This document shows positions 10,195 through 27,469 of a DNA stretch of 64,000 bases, piece by piece. Origin of the DNA: Bacteroidota bacterium (GTDB lineage Bacteria > Bacteroidota > Bacteroidia > Bacteroidales > UBA12481). Where the stretch lies: contig JAYEFL010000286.1 in assembly GCA_034658635.1 (NCBI GenBank), positions 1,773-65,772 on the forward strand. Reading direction: 5' to 3'. The position numbers were made by a program, and so were the translations under genes. Every line of letters starts with the position of its first letter. The stretch's first letter is position 1. The notes under the pieces are model-generated. The model was not told the origin of the DNA. It was given only the letters and a program-made list of their open reading frames with translations, and searched no databases.

Positions 10195-10464
10195 TTAGCT
10201 ATCCACTAATACAATCACGTTATTATCAACACATTCCACAACCCCTCGGTTTACCCCGAAAAATTGCTCTGTACCATTTTCCTCCACTACTTTGATTTGT
10301 CCTTTCTCCAAAGTGGATATAATGGGCGCATGGAGATTTAAGATCTCAAAAGATCCTTTGCTTCCCGGAAGTCTTATCAGCTTGATATCCCCGGCAAAGA
10401 GTTGTTTTTCAGGAGTGACAATTTCAAGGTACACAATAATAGAATTTTGTTGTTCATCGCCCAA
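10195..10464 (-). CDS. atpC: F1 ATP synthase subunit epsilon
   Basis: YLEIVTPEKQLF...GSFEILNLHAPIISTL is the epsilon N-terminal beta-sandwich. The ORF maximum begins with TTG at 10464. GTG at 10434, giving (M)YLEIVTPE, is an equally plausible start. It directly abuts the atpD stop. Confidence 0.85.
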   Translation of the reverse strand: MGDEQQNSIIVYLEIVTPEKQLFAGDIKLIRLPGSKGSFEILNLHAPIISTLEKGQIKVVEENGTEQFFGVNRGVVECVDNNVIVLVDS

Positions 10465-12018
<1,554 letters not shown>

Positions 12019-19499: not shown

Positions 19500-20870
19500 C
19501 TAAAATAACTCCCGGATCATTTGCTTGAGATGCTCCGGGTTTCTGGGTTTTCCAATAACTTTTCTCTCCTTATCCAGCAAAATCATAGTTGGAGTTGCCC
19601 TGATACCATAGTCATATGCAATAGAGCAATCCCATCCTTTCAGTTCGGAGAAGTTTATCCAGGAATACTGACCTAAGCCAAGAGCCTTTTGGTATTCATT
19701 AGAATCCTTATCCAGAGAAATCGACAAAATCTCGAAGCCCTTACTTTTATACTGGTCATAAATATGCTTGATCTCAGGTAGCATTTCAGTACAATGCTGA
19801 CACCAGCTGGCCCAGAATAAAACCATTACAACAGGCTGCTTCATTTCAGAGAGGATAAGGGGACCTGAGGATAGAGGCAGGATTATTTCAGGAGCTGTAA
19901 TTCCCAATTCAGTTTTCTTAATAGCTGCTAATGTTTCAGCCAACTCGCGGTTTCGTGATTCATCTTTACATGAAGCATCTAAAAGGAAGTTCTCTGTGAA
20001 ATAAGCGAAGAATGCTTCATATTCAGAACGTTCAAACATGCTGGCAATTTCTTGCAGAAGAAAAGAGTAAACCAAATCATTCACAGCCGCCTGAGACAAA
20101 AGCCGGTTCAATCCACCGATCATTGCTTCCTCAAGTTCATTAGGAGGGAATGCCTGTTGATACACCCCAAAATAGCTTTTCACCCGGGATATCAGGGGTG
20201 GACTGTACATCAATACGGAATCACTGAAGTCAACACCAGCAAAGAAGTTCTCTAAGATGTAATCACGTTCTTCCTCTATACTCAAACCAACCGGTACCCG
20301 GGGTGATTTCTCAACTTTCAGAAATCTGGCCACATAGCTGTTGGGGTAATTTTGAATTATTTGCTTTGATACAGATTCAGGGTCTGTTTGTCTTATTCCT
20401 GCCAGTTCCTTTTCAATTTCCTTATAAAAAGACTCAGATGGATCATACAGGCTCAGTAAACTTGAAAGATACTCCCTCTTTCTATTCAGCATCATGAAAA
20501 AATTCATGTACCTGTTCCACAGTTTATTCTCTTCAGAACTGATAACCTTAAGATTATCAACAGGGGCATTAAAGTTGGTATGAAGAACAATATTCTCCTT
20601 ATTGAAAATAAAATCAAGCCAGGTTCGGGGTCCCATCACCATTCTGTACATTCCGGGATGAGCATCGGCAGGTAATAAAAAGTCAATCTGACCAGGATGG
20701 GTAGTATGAACAGAATCAATCATACCTCCAGTTTTATCGCCAATAAATTCATACAGGTATGCCTTTGACGTTAACATGGAGTCTACCTGAATCCGAATCG
20801 TATACTGACCTTGGACACTGTTGAATAAAAGACCTTGTAAAAGAAGCAATAATATCCAAATTCGGTTCAT
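19500..20870 (-). CDS. TlpA/AhpC-TSA family thiol:disulfide oxidoreductase with large N-terminal domain
   Basis: 456 aa with a signal peptide. The C-terminal thioredoxin fold carries the WASWCQHC active site. Confidence 0.75.
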   Translation of the reverse strand: MNRIWILLLLLQGLLFNSVQGQYTIRIQVDSMLTSKAYLYEFIGDKTGGMIDSVHTTHPGQIDFLLPADAHPGMYRMVMGPRTWLDFIFNKENIVLHTNFNAPVDNLKVISSEENKLWNRYMNFFMMLNRKREYLSSLLSLYDPSESFYKEIEKELAGIRQTDPESVSKQIIQNYPNSYVARFLKVEKSPRVPVGLSIEEERDYILENFFAGVDFSDSVLMYSPPLISRVKSYFGVYQQAFPPNELEEAMIGGLNRLLSQAAVNDLVYSFLLQEIASMFERSEYEAFFAYFTENFLLDASCKDESRNRELAETLAAIKKTELGITAPEIILPLSSGPLILSEMKQPVVMVLFWASWCQHCTEMLPEIKHIYDQYKSKGFEILSISLDKDSNEYQKALGLGQYSWINFSELKGWDCSIAYDYGIRATPTMILLDKERKVIGKPRNPEHLKQMIRELF

Positions 20871-20875
20871 ATCTC

Positions 20876-21754
20876 CTATCCTTTTAATGCCTCAGCCCCT
20901 CCAACAATTTCTAGTATTTCATTTGTAATGGAGGCCTGTCTGGCTTTATTGTAAGATAAATTGAGATTGCTGATCAAATCGGTAGCATTATCCGTGGCCT
21001 GGTGCATAGCAGTCATCCGGGCTCCGTGTTCAGCGGCTTTTGAATCCAATATTGCTTTGAAAAACTGAATTTTCAGGGCATCAGGAATAAGAACCCGGAT
21101 CATGTACTCAAGACTGGGCTCAAAAATATAATTATTCTGGTGACGAGAATCCTCCTCTTGGTTTATCTCCAAAGGAAGGAATTGCTCATGTGTAAGAATT
21201 TGAGAGGCAGCATTCTTAAACTCATTGTATATCAGATCAATACGGTCGTATTTGCCTTCTGCAAACTGATCCATCAATACCTGAGCCTGCAGTTGAATAT
21301 CTTCAAAGCTTGATACCTCAAGTATTTCATTGGACAAAGTTGTGAAACTGTATCCCTTGCTTTTCAGAATATCCCCACCCTTTTTTCCAACCAAAATCAA
21401 CTCCAGCTGTCCTTTTTGATATTGCTCAGCATAAACTGTATTCATCAATTCAATGCTCTTTCTAACAACGTTAGCAATAAAACCCCCACATAATCCGCGG
21501 TTCGCAGTAATTACCACAAGGGCAACTTTCTCAACCTGGCGTTGTGTGGAGTAAGGATTCGACTCTGCTGTTTCCAGGCTGCTGCTAATATGGGTAAGGA
21601 TTTCGTGCAATTTTCTTGCATACGGACGCATTTGCAAAATGGAATCCTGTGCTTTTTTGAGTTTAGCCGCTGAAACCATTTTCATGGCACTGGTAATCTG
21701 CCTGGTAGATTTTACCGAGCTAATCCTGGTGCGTATTTCTTTCAGACTGGCCAT
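20876..21754 (-). CDS. atpG: F1 ATP synthase subunit gamma
   Basis: 292 aa. The N-terminus is MASLKEIRTRISSVKSTRQITSAMKMVSAAKL and the C-terminus is ITNEILEIVGGAEAL. Confidence 0.95.
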   Translation of the reverse strand: MASLKEIRTRISSVKSTRQITSAMKMVSAAKLKKAQDSILQMRPYARKLHEILTHISSSLETAESNPYSTQRQVEKVALVVITANRGLCGGFIANVVRKSIELMNTVYAEQYQKGQLELILVGKKGGDILKSKGYSFTTLSNEILEVSSFEDIQLQAQVLMDQFAEGKYDRIDLIYNEFKNAASQILTHEQFLPLEINQEEDSRHQNNYIFEPSLEYMIRVLIPDALKIQFFKAILDSKAAEHGARMTAMHQATDNATDLISNLNLSYNKARQASITNEILEIVGGAEALKG

Positions 21755-21757
21755 TGG

Positions 21758-23335
21758 CTATTTATATTTTGTGGAAAATTCTTTTGCTGCTTTTTTCAGT
21801 ATTTCTTCTGAATCTGAAGTAATCTTACCAAGCAGTAATTCGGCTAAAACATTCTTTTCCTTCAGCTCAAGATATTCAAGGAAATCGTTTTGAAACTCTT
21901 TCACTTTTTCAACCGGAACATCCATTATTAGTCCACGTGCACCACAAAACAATATGGCAATTTGCTTATCAACCGGCATTGGCTCATGAAGGCCTTGCTT
22001 TAAAATTTCCACATTTCGTGATCCTTTACCCAGAACAGCTAAAGTTGCTGCATCCAGATCCGACCCAAACTTTGAGAAAGCCTCCAATTCGCGATACTGT
22101 GCCTGATCAAGTTTCAGTGTACCTGCAACTTTTTTCATAGCTTTTACCTGTGCTGCCCCACCCACACGAGAAACTGAAATACCAACATTAATAGCCGGTC
22201 TGACCCCAGAGTTAAACAATCTGGATTCCAGAAAAATCTGACCATCAGTAATGGAAATCACATTTGTTGGGATATATGCAGAAACATCTCCAGCCTGTGT
22301 TTCAACTATAGGAAGCGCTGTAAGAGATCCTCCGCCCTTAACTTTATCTCTCAAAGCGTCGGGAAGATCATTCATCTTCTGTGCAATCTCATCAGACTCA
22401 ATAATTTTGGCCGCTCTTTCAAGCAAGCGGGAATGCAAATAAAAAACATCACCAGGGTAAGCTTCTCGTCCGGGAGGACGACGCAGAAGCAATGAAACTT
22501 CACGATATGATACAGCTTGTTTTGACAGGTCATCATAAACGATTAGGGCTGACCTGCCTGTATCTCTGAAATACTCACCAATTGCAGCACCAGCAAATGG
22601 AGCATAAAACTGCATTGCAGCAGGATCAGCAGCAGTTGCAGTCACTATTATCGTATAAGGCATAGCTCCGAAATGCTCAAGAGTTTTCGCAATCTGAGCA
22701 ACTGTTGATCCCTTTTGTCCGATAGAAACATAGATACAATACACCGGCTCGCCTTTGTCATAAAATTCTTTCTGGTTGATAATAGTATCAATAGCTATCG
22801 CAGTCTTACCAGTTTGACGGTCGCCAATAATCAATTCCCTCTGTCCTCGCCCAATCGGAATCATAGCATCAATTGCCTTAATGCCGGTTTGCAAAGGCTC
22901 ATTAACAGGCTGACGGAAAATCACCCCCGGAGCTTTTCTTTCAAGGGGCAGTTCAAAAAGTTCGCCTTGCAGTGGACCTTTGCCATCAACAGGCTCTCCA
23001 ATGGTATTAATAATGCGTCCAAGCAATTGTTCTCCAACCGGTACAGATGCAATCTTCTGTGTACGCTTAACCAATCCTCCTTCTGTTATGCCTTCAGTCG
23101 GTCCGAGTAAAACGACACCAACATTGTCTTCTTCAAGATTTAGAACAATGCCTTTCACTCCATTTTCGAACTCAATTAATTCATTGGCCTGCACATTTGA
23201 CAGGCCATATACACGTGCAATTCCATCACCAACCTGAAGAACAGTTCCCACCTCTTCCATCTGGGTGCTGAGCTGAATTCCTTCAAGTTGTTTCTTTAAA
23301 ATCTCAGATACTTCTGCAGGTTTAATGTGAGCCAT
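21758..23335 (-). CDS. atpA: F1 ATP synthase subunit alpha
   Basis: 525 aa with Walker A GDRQTGKT and collinear similarity to AtpA over the full length. Confidence 0.98.
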
Positions 23336-23343
23336 AATCCTAT

Positions 23344-23901
23344 CTATTTTTCAATATTGGGCAATAATTTGTCAAAACAATCTTCGCTAACATGGAAGAA
23401 AACATCTGTTTCTTCTCCACTAAATTCTATTCTTGAGCCATCATATTCAATCAGCTCTAATCCATTTTCTTCACCCAGAATAACAATATCTCCATGTACT
23501 GAGCGATATAAAAAGCATAAGGGTCTTTTATTTTCAGCCTCTTCAATGAGTGCCACGGTTGATTCATCACTTGTATCCACTACAAATTCCAATTTGTGGG
23601 CTACTGCTGAGAGGCCCCTTTTTTGGGATTTTACTAAAGGATTTTCAGCTACATCTAAAACACGAAACCCGGCTTTTGGCTTCATTTTAATACTTACAGA
23701 AACTCCCTGGTTATCCTTATTGTTTTCTATGATATCAGACTTATAAGACCAGGCTAATACAGCTTTGAATGAACGCTTCCTTTTTGAACCGGAATAGGCA
23801 ACTTCAGACTTATCTGAAATATTTTCCCCCTGAATATTTTTTACATAATTCTTTGAATCCGGGCGGAATATGGTTAACAGCCATTTAAAGAAACGGTTCA
23901 T
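23344..23901 (-). CDS. Hypothetical protein embedded between atpH and atpA
   Basis: 185-aa uninterrupted ORF in AT-rich DNA, on the same strand as its neighbours. It lies 11 nt after the atpH stop and 8 nt before the atpA start. It is soluble, K/E-rich and looks beta-rich. I recognise no motif. Confidence 0.6.
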
Positions 23902-23912
23902 AGCGCTTGTTT

Positions 23913-24461
23913 TTATTGTATAAGGGTTTGGTCTAATTCTCGTCTGATTTTTTTCAACTGAGAAGCAATACTTACATCCAGCTGTTCATCATCAACCCTA
24001 AGGATAAATCCTCCTATCAGATCCGGATCTATTTGCTCTTCAAGCTCAATCTCAGCTGTATATCTTTGCTTCAGCAATACTTTAATTTTCTCAAGACTAT
24101 CAACCTGACTTTCTAAAACTGTAGTCAATCTTGCCCTGATAATCCCCTGGTCTTTACGGTACAAATGAAAGTACTTTCTGATCATTGCCGGCAAGTAGCT
24201 TTCTCTCTTATTTCTGGTAATTAGCTCCAAAAACCGAAAACTTAATTCCTGACAATGATTTTTAAAAAGAGCATTCAAAATGGTCAGCTTTTCACTCACC
24301 TGTAAAACCGGACTTTGAATAAACTCTGCGAACTCCGGAGTTTCCCTCAGCAGCTTGTCAATATACTTCAGATCATTAAGAACCTGCTCAGTAAGTTTCA
24401 AATCACGAGCCGATGCATATAAGGCTTTAGCATAACGAACAGCTATTGAACTATCATTCAT
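23913..24461 (-). CDS. atpH: F1 ATP synthase subunit delta (OSCP)
   Basis: 182 aa. VRYAKALY at the N-terminus and GGFILRVDDEQLDVSI at the C-terminus are typical of OSCP. Confidence 0.9.
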   Translation of the reverse strand: MNDSSIAVRYAKALYASARDLKLTEQVLNDLKYIDKLLRETPEFAEFIQSPVLQVSEKLTILNALFKNHCQELSFRFLELITRNKRESYLPAMIRKYFHLYRKDQGIIRARLTTVLESQVDSLEKIKVLLKQRYTAEIELEEQIDPDLIGGFILRVDDEQLDVSIASQLKKIRRELDQTLIQ

Positions 24462-24463
24462 AA

Positions 24464-24958
24464 TTAATTCAGCTTCATATCCTTAAGCATGTCATTTATC
24501 AATGCTTCACTTTTGGTTACATCACTCAGTTCAGTACGTAGAATTTTTTCTGCTACCTGAACTGAAAGAACTGAGATCTGCTTCTTTATCTCACCTATTG
24601 CACTAACTTTTTCACTCTCGATTAGTTTCCTGGCATTTTCCAGTAGTTTTTCTCCTTCTTTTACAGCCTCTGATCGTGCGACTTCGAGCATTTCATCTCT
24701 CATTTTTCTGGCTTCACCCATAAGAACATCTCTTTCAGCACGTGCTTCCATCATAATTTTTTCATGATCTGCCCGGAGAGCAGCCATTTCTTTTCTGGCA
24801 GCATCAGCAGCCCGAAGAGCCTCATCAATAGACTCTTCCCGGTCTTTCAGTCCTTTAAGAATTGGACCCCATGCAAATTTAGCAAGTATAAAAAAGACCA
24901 GACCAAATGCCAAAACCATCCAGAAAATCGTACCATAAGCGGGACTAATTAAACCCAT
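24464..24958 (-). CDS. atpF: F0 ATP synthase subunit b
   Basis: 164 aa with a single N-terminal TM helix followed by a long charged helix (AEAR, REMLE-type repeats). Confidence 0.9.
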   Translation of the reverse strand: MGLISPAYGTIFWMVLAFGLVFFILAKFAWGPILKGLKDREESIDEALRAADAARKEMAALRADHEKIMMEARAERDVLMGEARKMRDEMLEVARSEAVKEGEKLLENARKLIESEKVSAIGEIKKQISVLSVQVAEKILRTELSDVTKSEALINDMLKDMKLN

Positions 24959-24984
24959 ATCAATGTTTTTGGTAGATTAATAAA

Positions 24985-25015
24985 GGTTGCAGAGCGGCTA
25001 CCCCGAACTGCAACC
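24985..25015 (-). terminator. Intercistronic stem-loop between atpE and atpF (possible attenuator or mRNA stabiliser)
   Basis: GGTTGCAG (24985-24992) pairs perfectly with CTGCAACC (25008-25015) around a 15-nt loop. On the minus-strand transcript it is followed by UUUAUUAAU. Confidence 0.4.
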
Positions 25016-25022
25016 AAAAGGC

Positions 25023-25298
<276 letters not shown>

Positions 25299-25313
25299 TT
25301 AAAATACAGAAAA

Positions 25314-26432
25314 TTAATGTCCTTCTTCTTTTGCCATCCCAAAATACAAGGCAGACAGCAGGGTGAATACATAAGCCTGGATAAATGCAACCAGGAACTC
25401 AAGCATAGTCATAAAAATATAAAAGAGAACAGAAATCACAGAAACGCCATAACCAGCGATCCAGTGAATTTGCCCAAAAATGAAAATCAAAGCAATGAAG
25501 CTAAGCACAATAAAGTGTCCGGCAAGCATATTTGCAAAAAGCCGGATACACAGAACCAGGGGTTTGGTAAATACTCCAAGCAGCTCAATAAAGGGCATGA
25601 GTGGAATTGGAAATTTCAACCACCATGGAACACCGGGAGCATTAAAAATATGTTTCCAATAATGCTTGTTTGTAGAAAAAGCAGTAATCAGGAAAGTAGC
25701 AATAGCCAAAACTGCTGTAATAGCAATATTGCCAGTCACATTAGCACCCCCGGGAGGAATTGGAATAATACCCATCAAATTATTCAGAAGAATAAAGAAA
25801 AAGACGCTAAGCAGGAAAGGCATAAATTTTTCATACCTTTTTTTCCCGATAGAGGGGATGGCAATATCGTCGCGTACAAAAATGATAATCGGCTCCATAG
25901 CAGATTGCAGCCCTCTGGGTGCAGTATTTGGATTATGCTTGTATCTTCTGGCTACCGAAAGAAAAATCCACAGCAGCAAACCCAGACTCACAAACATAGC
26001 CGTTACTGTTTTTGTAATTGAAAAATCCAGAGGAAGCTCAGCTTCAATTATTTCGTGGCCATGTTCATCGGCAGGTACAATTTTACCTTCCCTATCTCCT
26101 TTGTCAGCAATCATAAATCCTTTATAGGAACTATGACCATGATGAAATTTGGATGACATAAAAACATGCAATCCCGACTTCTTTGAGTAGAGAATAATTG
26201 GCAATGGAACACTGATATGCTTATCCCCCACAGTCATAATATGCCATTCGTATGAGTCCATCACATGTTCCAGCATAAAGACTCCTGGATCAAACTCAGC
26301 CTCATCTTCAGCATGTGGAGTACCGGTAGCTTCTTCAGAGTGATCCTGTGCAACCAGACCAAAAGCGCTGAAAGAAAAGATCAATAATACGGTCAATAAT
26401 TTCTTCATCTGCATACTTGCCAATATACCCAT
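25314..26432 (-). CDS. atpB: F0 ATP synthase subunit a
   Basis: 372 aa. It carries the RLFANMLAGH motif and the N-terminal signal-like extension seen in Bacteroidota. Alternative starts exist at 26414 and 26408. Confidence 0.93.
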   Translation of the reverse strand: MGILASMQMKKLLTVLLIFSFSAFGLVAQDHSEEATGTPHAEDEAEFDPGVFMLEHVMDSYEWHIMTVGDKHISVPLPIILYSKKSGLHVFMSSKFHHGHSSYKGFMIADKGDREGKIVPADEHGHEIIEAELPLDFSITKTVTAMFVSLGLLLWIFLSVARRYKHNPNTAPRGLQSAMEPIIIFVRDDIAIPSIGKKRYEKFMPFLLSVFFFILLNNLMGIIPIPPGGANVTGNIAITAVLAIATFLITAFSTNKHYWKHIFNAPGVPWWLKFPIPLMPFIELLGVFTKPLVLCIRLFANMLAGHFIVLSFIALIFIFGQIHWIAGYGVSVISVLFYIFMTMLEFLVAFIQAYVFTLLSALYFGMAKEEGH

Positions 26433-26460
26433 TTCAGGGAAAGTTCAAAGGTAAAAAAAA

Positions 26461-26841
26461 TTAGCGATCGCCCTCAACAAGTTTTTGCAATGCCCTGACT
26501 TCGAAACCCGTGAAAATTGCATACAATGAAAACAAAACAACAACAAAAGGCAATACATCACTTTTATCAAAAAGCAAGTAGATAACCGTAACAAACATCA
26601 AGGCTAAAAGTTTTAAAGCAGAAGCAGCCATAAAGACATTTGAGAAGCGCTTGGGTTTCTTTTTAAGCGATTGCATAAGATACCAATGCTCCAATCCGGT
26701 AACAAAAGCGAAAAAACCTACCATCCATGAGTGAATGGGTAAATAATATTCTGATAATATGGTAGCACCTAATGCCAGGATCAGAATGATCAGCACGACT
26801 GACATCCCGGCCAATCGATACAGGTAGCTTGAATACTTCAT
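26461..26841 (-). CDS. Small 4-TM membrane protein of the ATP synthase leader region
   Basis: 126 aa with four hydrophobic helices. Its start overlaps the AtpZ stop (ATGA). Confidence 0.55.
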   Translation of the reverse strand: MKYSSYLYRLAGMSVVLIILILALGATILSEYYLPIHSWMVGFFAFVTGLEHWYLMQSLKKKPKRFSNVFMAASALKLLALMFVTVIYLLFDKSDVLPFVVVLFSLYAIFTGFEVRALQKLVEGDR

Positions 26842-27077
26842 TTATTCAGTTCTTTTATCAATAAGTAAAGGGATAAAAAAAGCCCTGATGTTGACAGGAC
26901 CAAAGTAAATATCGGGAATTCCAGTTTAAGCCACTCATCCAATTTCATTCCCCCAAAAAAGCCAAGCAAGATCGCAGCAATCCACTTGAATGCCATGTTT
27001 GAATACCGGGCATACTCACGCAGGGGATTATGATTATTCCCTTGCTTATTTTCTTGGGATTTCTTTTTGATTGCCAT
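26838..27077 (-). CDS. AtpZ/AtpI-family small membrane protein
   Basis: The ORF extends to 27128. The likely start is 27077 (MAIKKKSQ...). The segment YSNMAFKWIAAILLGFFGGMKLDEWL plus a second TM helix is typical of AtpZ/AtpI. Confidence 0.6.
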   Translation of the reverse strand: MAIKKKSQENKQGNNHNPLREYARYSNMAFKWIAAILLGFFGGMKLDEWLKLEFPIFTLVLSTSGLFLSLYLLIKELNK

Positions 27078-27420
27078 CCGGGTTACCATCCATTTTACAG
27101 GAACCGGTAAAAACCGCACCCGGTTCAATAGCCAGTTTTTTCGTTACAATTTCACCTTGAATTACAGCTGAAGCTTTCAGGCTGACCAATTCAGAGGCCT
27201 GGATATTTCCAATCACCTTTCCGGAAACTTCAATAAGCTGGCAAACGATATCACCATTTACCATTCCGGGAGAACCAATGACAACTTTGCCACGTATAGT
27301 AATTTTACCCTTTAATTGTCCGTCAACTCGAATTCCTGATGAGGATTCAATATCTCCAGTGACTTTTGTACCGGCCGAGACCAGGTTAATATTGTTTGCT
27401 GTTTCCATTTCTTTTGCCAT
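27046..27420 (-). CDS. Bactofilin (polymer-forming cytoskeletal protein, DUF583)
   Basis: ATG 27420 gives MAKEMET... The sequence has a repetitive beta-helix pattern: TKVTGDIESSSGIRVDGQLKGKITIRGKVVIGSPGMVNGDIV...VIGNIQA. Confidence 0.8.
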   Translation of the reverse strand: MAKEMETANNINLVSAGTKVTGDIESSSGIRVDGQLKGKITIRGKVVIGSPGMVNGDIVCQLIEVSGKVIGNIQASELVSLKASAVIQGEIVTKKLAIEPGAVFTGSCKMDGNPDGNQKEIPRK

Positions 27421-27469
27421 AATCACTGAAATTTAGATCAAAAATATCAAAAAGCTGAGTGAAATAAAA

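Follow-up and report, generated by a model that had tools for sequence, protein, structure and literature searches.

Few gene arrangements in bacteria are as conserved as the operon encoding the F-type ATP synthase, and the presence of an additional gene at one of its internal junctions raises the question of what that gene is doing there. The gene in question, ORF185, is an open reading frame (ORF) of 185 amino acids (aa) followed by a TAG stop codon, located on the minus strand (positions 23344-23901) of a 64,000-nucleotide (nt) stretch of Bacteroidales DNA (contig JAYEFL010000286.1), hereafter referred to as the window. An earlier note made from the sequence of the window had described the gene order atpB-atpE-atpF-atpH-ORF185-atpA-atpG, with gaps of 11 and 8 nt around ORF185, and this order was confirmed here from the ORF list, the sequence and Pfam. 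The upstream neighbor is atpH, encoding the delta/OSCP subunit (23913-24461, minus; PF00213, E-value 1.5e-43), whose TAA stop codon is followed by an 11-nt spacer (23902-23912) and by the ATG of ORF185 at position 23901. The TAG of ORF185 is in turn followed by an 8-nt spacer (23336-23343) and by the ATG of atpA, encoding the alpha subunit (21758-23335, minus; PF00006, PF00306 and PF02874). The analysis reveals that ORF185 belongs to an undescribed protein family that is restricted to the Bacteroidales, and our tentative reading is that of an exapted and autonomous protein, peripheral to the membrane and with a tail-tube-like fold, that uses the atp operon for its expression, being neither a subunit of the enzyme nor a substitute for epsilon.

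The earlier note had remarked that the ORF is long for AT-rich DNA, and 185 open codons at 36% GC would indeed arise with a probability of only about 2e-6, a figure obtained by arithmetic from base composition. Five close homologues with 48-100% identity were all located between the OSCP and alpha genes, and an exhaustive HMMER search of 1.84 billion representative sequences returned 28 clusters at E<=1e-3, one of which, a 3077-aa protein, was discarded as a false positive caused by cadherin/Big_9 repeats. Among whole genomes, ORF185 was present in all four genomes of its own genus and in three of the four genomes of the sister genus. Its absence from the fourth sister-genus genome is only apparent, with the contig ending exactly at atpH. 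The survey of related junctions that had been proposed as a check hence recovered orthologues at the same position throughout the clade, with 28-79% identity, in every member checked from both genera and from related metagenome contigs. In all these orthologous loci the spacers flanking ORF185 measure 2-13 nt (3-13 nt after atpH and 2-12 nt before atpA), and the encoded proteins span 180-187 aa.

Pairwise estimates of the ratio of nonsynonymous to synonymous substitution rates (dN/dS) yielded values of 0.14-0.27 for ORF185, compared with 0.07-0.13 for atpH, 0.06-0.14 for atpF and 0.02-0.05 for atpA. The rate of evolution of the gene exceeds that of atpH 2-3-fold and that of atpA 5-10-fold, and where its identity to the window sequence falls to 28%, that of atpH is 40-48% and that of atpA 85%. 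By these estimates, ORF185 is under purifying selection, yet it is the least constrained and fastest-evolving gene of the operon. Its sense frame is the only frame that remains open in all nine orthologues examined, and an antisense ORF of 139 aa (23327-23746) was rejected, as it is not conserved among them. On comparative grounds, ORF185 is a genuine protein-coding gene. A separate observation concerns a short metagenome contig (1962 nt) that carries an ORF185 orthologue with 47% identity. Of OSCP, only a fragment of 89 aa lies ahead of this orthologue, and it directly adjoins a Rieske-domain gene in divergent orientation; the contig represents either a rearranged second locus or a chimera.

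The history of the insertion was reconstructed from a maximum-likelihood tree of 36 family members, in which a split with 100/99 support separates two sides. One side contains all 14 members that are known from the atpH-atpA junction, and the other contains all eight whose known location is elsewhere, none of them linked to atp genes. Further divergent members of the atp-linked side again presented the order atpH-ORF-atpA. Since the atp-linked members form a single clade with this support, ORF185 entered the operon once, by a clean, single-gene insertion in the ancestor of two uncultured genera, followed by vertical inheritance. Two sister genera of the same taxonomic family present the order fabH-bactofilin-AtpR-(AtpI-like)-atpBEFH-atpAG-TlpA-like without ORF185, and in them atpA starts about 15 nt after atpH.

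The earlier note had stated that the delta and alpha genes are normally contiguous, and this was borne out in 59 of 60 further Bacteroidales genomes, in which atpA starts between -13 and 162 nt after atpH and no inserted gene is present. Seven more junctions without ORF185 displayed gaps of about 15-60 nt, so that 66 of the 67 genomes sampled from the order have no gene inserted at the junction, the operon being split in the remaining one. The possibility that the atpH-atpA junction constitutes a variable slot for genes was accordingly rejected for the Bacteroidales, as 59 of the 60 further junctions leave no room for a gene. In the genome with the split operon, the break falls directly after atpH and convergent unrelated genes follow, so that atpA must lie elsewhere. 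Two genomes (G220 and G225) have unusually long spacers, of 162 and 125 nt, that might accommodate a tiny ORF or an RNA element. In addition, the atpH matches from four genomes (G104, G072, G204 and G064) contained one in-frame stop codon (TAA or TAG) within the matched stretch, which could reflect a match overrunning the true stop, a pseudogene or recoding.

The members of the family that are not linked to atp genes are lone genes in housekeeping surroundings. They adjoin genes for HydF and an S46 peptidase, for saccharopine dehydrogenase and a C10 peptidase, or for TrkA and NadD, with a TPMT-type methyltransferase, a class-V aminotransferase and a PAS histidine kinase among their other neighbors. 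Two species of one genus (G153 and G367) carry a short, 156-aa member at different loci, beside saccharopine dehydrogenase and a C10 peptidase of the type IX secretion system in one case and beside TrkA and NadD in the other. The occurrence of the gene at different loci in two species of the same genus suggests that the lone family gene moves around.

The distribution of the family is narrow. Of 401 genomes drawn evenly from the order, eight (about 2%) carry it, as against none of 400 other genomes drawn across the phylum, which include some further genomes of the order. The named records of the family come only from metagenome-assembled genomes labelled Bacteroidales or uncultured Porphyromonadaceae, and all carriers of ORF185 are uncultured marine or brine Bacteroidales. 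An alignment-based word search of a set of 5.8 billion proteins contributed only two further members. Searches against Pfam, NCBIfam and PHROG returned no match for ORF185 or for 30 family members, PADLOC gave no meaningful match for the same number of members, and a profile search of PDB sequences yielded only chance-level matches (E-value about 0.2). A search of the literature found nothing on a gene at the atpH-atpA junction or on this family.

Family members are 150-190 aa long. The alignment of 30 members revealed a conserved N-terminus (M-x-x-F-F-x-W-L-F), with M1, F4 and L8 nearly invariant across the family, together with invariant glycines and the motifs L-G-E-x-x-G-L and G-E-E-x-D-x-F, and a C-terminal LLPNIEK motif was specific to the atp-linked clade. 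To obtain a structural model, AlphaFold2 was run on the family alignment for the full-length monomer and for the folded domain alone. The full model reached a mean predicted local distance difference test (pLDDT) score of 84.9, and the domain-only model a pLDDT of 90.5 with a predicted template modelling score (pTM) of 0.85. Three segments were delineated on this basis: a conserved N-terminal amphipathic helix with a putative membrane-binding role (residues 1-13, positions 23863-23901, minus; modelled as helical at residues 2-11), a disordered linker carrying a YVKNIQ motif and a polybasic KRKR patch (residues 14-46, 23764-23862, minus; pLDDT below 50 at residues 19-38) and a domain of beta-sandwich-plus-helix type with a tail-tube/Hcp-like fold (residues 47-185, 23347-23763, minus). 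The folded domain, of about 135 aa, is predicted with pLDDT above 90 at residues 45-180, and comprises ten beta strands and two helices, the first following strand six and the other at the C-terminus.

The N-terminal 12-mer presents the highest hydrophobic moment (muH) in ORF185 (0.80), most members of the atp-linked clade having values of 0.6-0.94, and the helix has a basic polar face (R3, K6, T10 and R13). ORF185 thus combines a terminal helix of high hydrophobic moment with a basic flank, the features by which amphipathic targeting helices are recognized. The net charge of the 46 N-terminal residues ranges from +3 to +10 in the atp-linked clade, versus -3 to +9 in other members, and a K/R-rich patch lies just before the domain in this clade, the domain itself being mostly acidic. 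Members outside the atp operon present weaker helices and shorter or uncharged linkers, and forms of 150-160 aa have little or no linker. From these features, the N-terminal helix of ORF185 is predicted to bind the membrane. The earlier description of ORF185 as a protein with no transmembrane segment and no recognized motif therefore stands as regards transmembrane segments and Pfam, NCBIfam and PHROG families, but the protein is not featureless, given its conserved amphipathic helix and its predicted beta domain.

Foldseek was run against PDB on both the full and the domain-only model, and in each case only phage tail-tube-type proteins ranked at the top. The matches included SPP1 gp17.1, monocin MttP, the corresponding proteins of Mu, Milano and 7-7-1, lambda gpV and 80alpha baseplate chains, with Hcp1 ranking lower; probabilities reached 0.99, with E-values of only 3e-3 to 5e-2 and template modelling (TM) scores of 0.35-0.49, and at least the top 20 matches were all tube, Dit or Hcp proteins. 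A search against predicted viral structures in BFVD produced 24 matches at E<=1e-3, the best with an E-value of 1.9e-8 and TM scores of 0.64/0.68. One of these is a named major tail protein, and others come from Nonlabens phage P12024L and Polaribacter phage Leef_1, which infect Bacteroidota hosts. Judged by protein length, the Nonlabens match is most likely gp09, which is encoded in the late/tail region, adjacent to a tail protein gene, and belongs to a PHROG without annotated function.

At the sequence level, the same relationship was not detected. Alignment of the ORF185 family with Nonlabens gp09 using hhalign was not significant (probability 2%), tblastn against 50,697 phage records found no sequence relatives, and neither did two pattern scans of viral contigs. 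As no sequence-level link was found, the domain is called tail-tube-like at the level of its predicted fold only. The earlier note had taken clear homology to a phage gene as a sign of a neutral insertion, and such a resemblance does emerge from the fold comparison but not from PHROG, tblastn or the scans of viral contigs. No ATP synthase chain appeared among the PDB sequence matches or the fold matches, which indicates that the domain is unrelated to the beta-sandwich of epsilon or to any known regulator of the enzyme. Furthermore, no tail, sheath or baseplate genes were identified near ORF185 family genes, whose neighbors are atp or housekeeping genes, and the phage-sheath family had no match in the genome of the window or in two ORF185-carrying relatives.

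The organization of the operon bears directly on how ORF185 may be expressed. The upstream Fo and stalk genes, assigned from the ORF list of the window and from Pfam families in syntenic loci, span 24464-26432 on the minus strand and comprise atpB (25314-26432), atpE, encoding subunit c (25023-25286), and atpF (24464-24958); atpG, encoding the gamma subunit (20876-21754, minus; PF00231 in syntenic loci), follows atpA. The head of the operon holds Pfam-identified genes for a bactofilin, an AtpR-like protein (ATPase_gene1) and an AtpI-like protein (26461-27426, minus), and a 456-aa TlpA-like thioredoxin gene starts 5 nt after atpG, in the flanking region at 19500-20870. These passenger genes, apparently co-oriented with the atp genes that they flank, are a trait of the whole taxonomic family, since they are conserved in the sister genera without ORF185; in relatives, the AtpI-like gene was recorded only where it gave a tblastn match.

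The Bacteroidota -7 promoter motif TAnnTTTG was located at 27439-27446, upstream of the bactofilin gene, and at 26446-26453, upstream of atpB, and a motif search of the operon strand found no instance near ORF185. A scan for sigma-70-type promoters gave chance-level results, the sigma-70 consensus being uninformative for the Bacteroidota. The lack of a Bacteroidota-type promoter motif of its own, together with the tight spacing, makes it reasonable to suppose that ORF185 is co-transcribed with the F1 genes, and the co-expression put forward in the earlier note is thus a fair reading of the locus. Searches of public runs turned up no RNA or protein evidence for the gene, and the only runs holding the locus are DNA metagenomes from brine and marine sediment. 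A weak terminator-like hairpin (8 pairs, 3 of them GC) was noted inside ORF185 at 23662-23685 on the minus strand, in a region with 13 terminator-like structures versus a mean of 6.9 after shuffling; lying within coding sequence, it is probably due to chance.

The beta and epsilon genes (atpD and atpC, 10195-11973, minus) are encoded separately, about 9 kilobases away. The epsilon frame comprises 89 aa, with homology starting at about residue 10, in agreement with the observation that epsilon is short in this genome. The suggestion that ORF185 compensates for this shortness did not hold. Epsilon frames measure 80-96 aa in all eight relatives tested, including five without ORF185 at the junction, in which epsilon is equally short. 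Short epsilon is hence a trait of the order and not of the ORF185 clade, and the compensation hypothesis is unsupported because this trait is order-wide and uncorrelated with ORF185.

The reading of ORF185 as an autonomous protein expressed from the atp operon is preferred here because its homologues elsewhere are unlinked to atp genes, the operon carries other passengers, the sister genera lack the gene and ORF185 evolves faster than its neighbors. Under this reading, ORF185 would share a transcript with the delta and alpha genes and probably also be coupled to them in translation, and the operon would provide a strong, growth-coupled expression platform, as it would for the bactofilin and TlpA-like genes. 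The amphipathic helix and basic patch would hold the protein on the inner face of the cytoplasmic membrane, where the beta domain may self-associate or bind a partner through the family-invariant acidic edge defined by LGExxGL and GEExDxF. A comparison of genomes with and without the gene detected no ORF185-specific feature or co-variation in the N-terminus of alpha or in delta, and this absence of visible co-variation also favors an autonomous role.

Several features of the locus weigh against this preference, and most of them speak for a lineage-specific accessory of the F1Fo ATP synthase, that is, a membrane-tethered, tail-tube-like domain that binds F1 or the peripheral stalk and is made in step with delta and alpha, helping to assemble, tether or cluster the enzyme or modulating its activity. 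With the junction free in 66 of 67 genomes, its occupation is exceptional, and it would be unusual for an unrelated gene to become fixed exactly there, between two F1 genes and without a promoter motif of its own. The spacing of 2-13 nt has been kept in every orthologue, down to 28% identity, alongside purifying selection on the protein. Moreover, when the gene was captured, its amphipathic helix became stronger in the atp-linked clade, and the KRKR polybasic patch and the conserved C-terminal LLPNIEK tail were acquired, changes that could mark a new partner such as F1Fo. The contexts of the other family genes name no autonomous function, and the membrane binding and oligomerization attributed to ORF185 are predicted properties. 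Against an accessory role, all the positional evidence stems from one evolutionary event, homologues elsewhere never adjoin atp genes, and sister genera maintain the same operon without ORF185. That operon, furthermore, already holds non-enzyme genes (bactofilin and TlpA-like), the protein resembles no known ATP synthase subunit or regulator, and alpha and delta show no co-variation with it. On balance, an accessory of the ATP synthase is nearly as likely an explanation as an autonomous protein. Its more specific form, in which a domesticated tail-tube-fold protein has become a new lineage-specific component of F1Fo, forming a membrane-tethered ring or patch beside or around the enzyme and assembling, clustering or braking it, is slightly less likely again.

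The remaining explanations carry much less weight. The fold resemblance to siphophage proteins, including those of phages of Bacteroidota hosts, invites the reading of ORF185 as an anti-phage protein, constitutively expressed by the operon, that co-assembles with, caps or poisons siphophage tail tubes, or mimics a tail component. The patchiness of the family (about 2% of the genomes of the order and none of 400 across the phylum), its different loci within one genus and its fast evolution relative to neighboring genes would be in keeping with such a role. We nevertheless consider it improbable: there is no PADLOC match, the surroundings of the family are housekeeping genes instead of defence islands or mobile elements, phage and viral collections hold no sequence relatives, long vertical inheritance under purifying selection is unlike the typical turnover of defence genes, and such a role has no evident need of an N-terminal membrane helix. 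A neutral or decaying insertion, with its frame kept open only to avoid polar effects on the translation of atpA, could be argued from the position in an essential operon, which might select for an open frame as such, and from the status of ORF185 as the fastest-evolving gene of the operon. This possibility, also raised in the earlier note, is not borne out by dN/dS values of 0.14-0.27, which denote selection on the amino-acid sequence, nor by invariant motifs common to distant homologues outside the operon, a fold confidently predicted from the alignment and a length that stays within 180-187 aa throughout the clade. Sequence analysis, within its limits, refutes it, and we give it very little credence. 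Least probable of all is that ORF185 supplies the tube or hub for a machine of tail-like or secretion type whose genes lie elsewhere in the genome, such as a tailocin, an extracellular contractile injection system (eCIS) or a type VI secretion system (T6SS). Despite the tail-tube/Hcp-like fold, there is one copy per genome with no tail, sheath or baseplate genes nearby, Pfam detects no Hcp or tail-tube family, and the N-terminal amphipathic helix and basic linker are foreign to tube subunits; with no sheath genes in the genome of the window or in two relatives, a role in a contractile machine was rejected and the reading is largely refuted.

Comparison with known systems places the presumptive autonomous protein, or accessory, apart from each of them. 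The domain of ORF185, of about 135 aa, resembles phage tail-tube, Dit and T6SS Hcp proteins in its predicted beta-sandwich-plus-helix fold, but it matches none of the tail-tube sequence families, reaches TM scores of only 0.35-0.49 to solved tubes and is known as a monomer model only. Unlike tail-tube proteins, ORF185 is also encoded by a lone cellular gene without tail, tape-measure, sheath or baseplate neighbors, and its folded domain is preceded by an amphipathic helix and a basic linker. The C-terminal domain of epsilon, the zeta subunit of alphaproteobacteria, AtpTheta of cyanobacteria and IF1 are short helical proteins or domains, and the genes of regulators of this type lie mostly outside atp operons. 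ORF185 resembles them in being a lineage-restricted, small and soluble protein that could act on F1, but differs in its predicted beta-sandwich and in having no sequence or structure match to ATP synthase chains.

AtpI/UncI, AtpZ and AtpR/ATPase_gene1 are small integral membrane proteins, encoded at the 5' end of the operon and widely distributed. Like them, ORF185 is encoded within the atp operon and falls outside the canonical eight subunits; in contrast to them, it is predicted to be soluble or membrane-peripheral, has F1 genes on both sides and occurs in a single clade. In its layout, with a terminal amphipathic helix bearing a basic face, a disordered linker and a folded domain, ORF185 resembles SepF and recalls the targeting helices of MinD, FtsA and MreB. 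SepF-type peripheral membrane tethers consist of an amphipathic helix, a flexible linker and an oligomerizing core, whereas ORF185 shows no homology to them, has a different core fold and is a membrane-binding protein by prediction only. To our knowledge, no tail-tube-like protein has been described inside an atp operon.

A selected insertion at the delta-alpha junction, maintained across two genera, represents either an unseen accessory of a well-studied enzyme or a case in which a core operon serves to express an unrelated, virus-like protein. If ORF185 were a domesticated component of F1Fo, an F-type ATPase would for the first time be known to have an accessory that is virus-derived and built as a beta-sandwich. 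ORF185 provides a concrete protein to express, localize and test against the enzyme. Either way, it defines a new protein family in these Bacteroidales, combining an amphipathic helix with a tail-tube-like domain, and a cellular setting for this fold outside tails and secretion systems.

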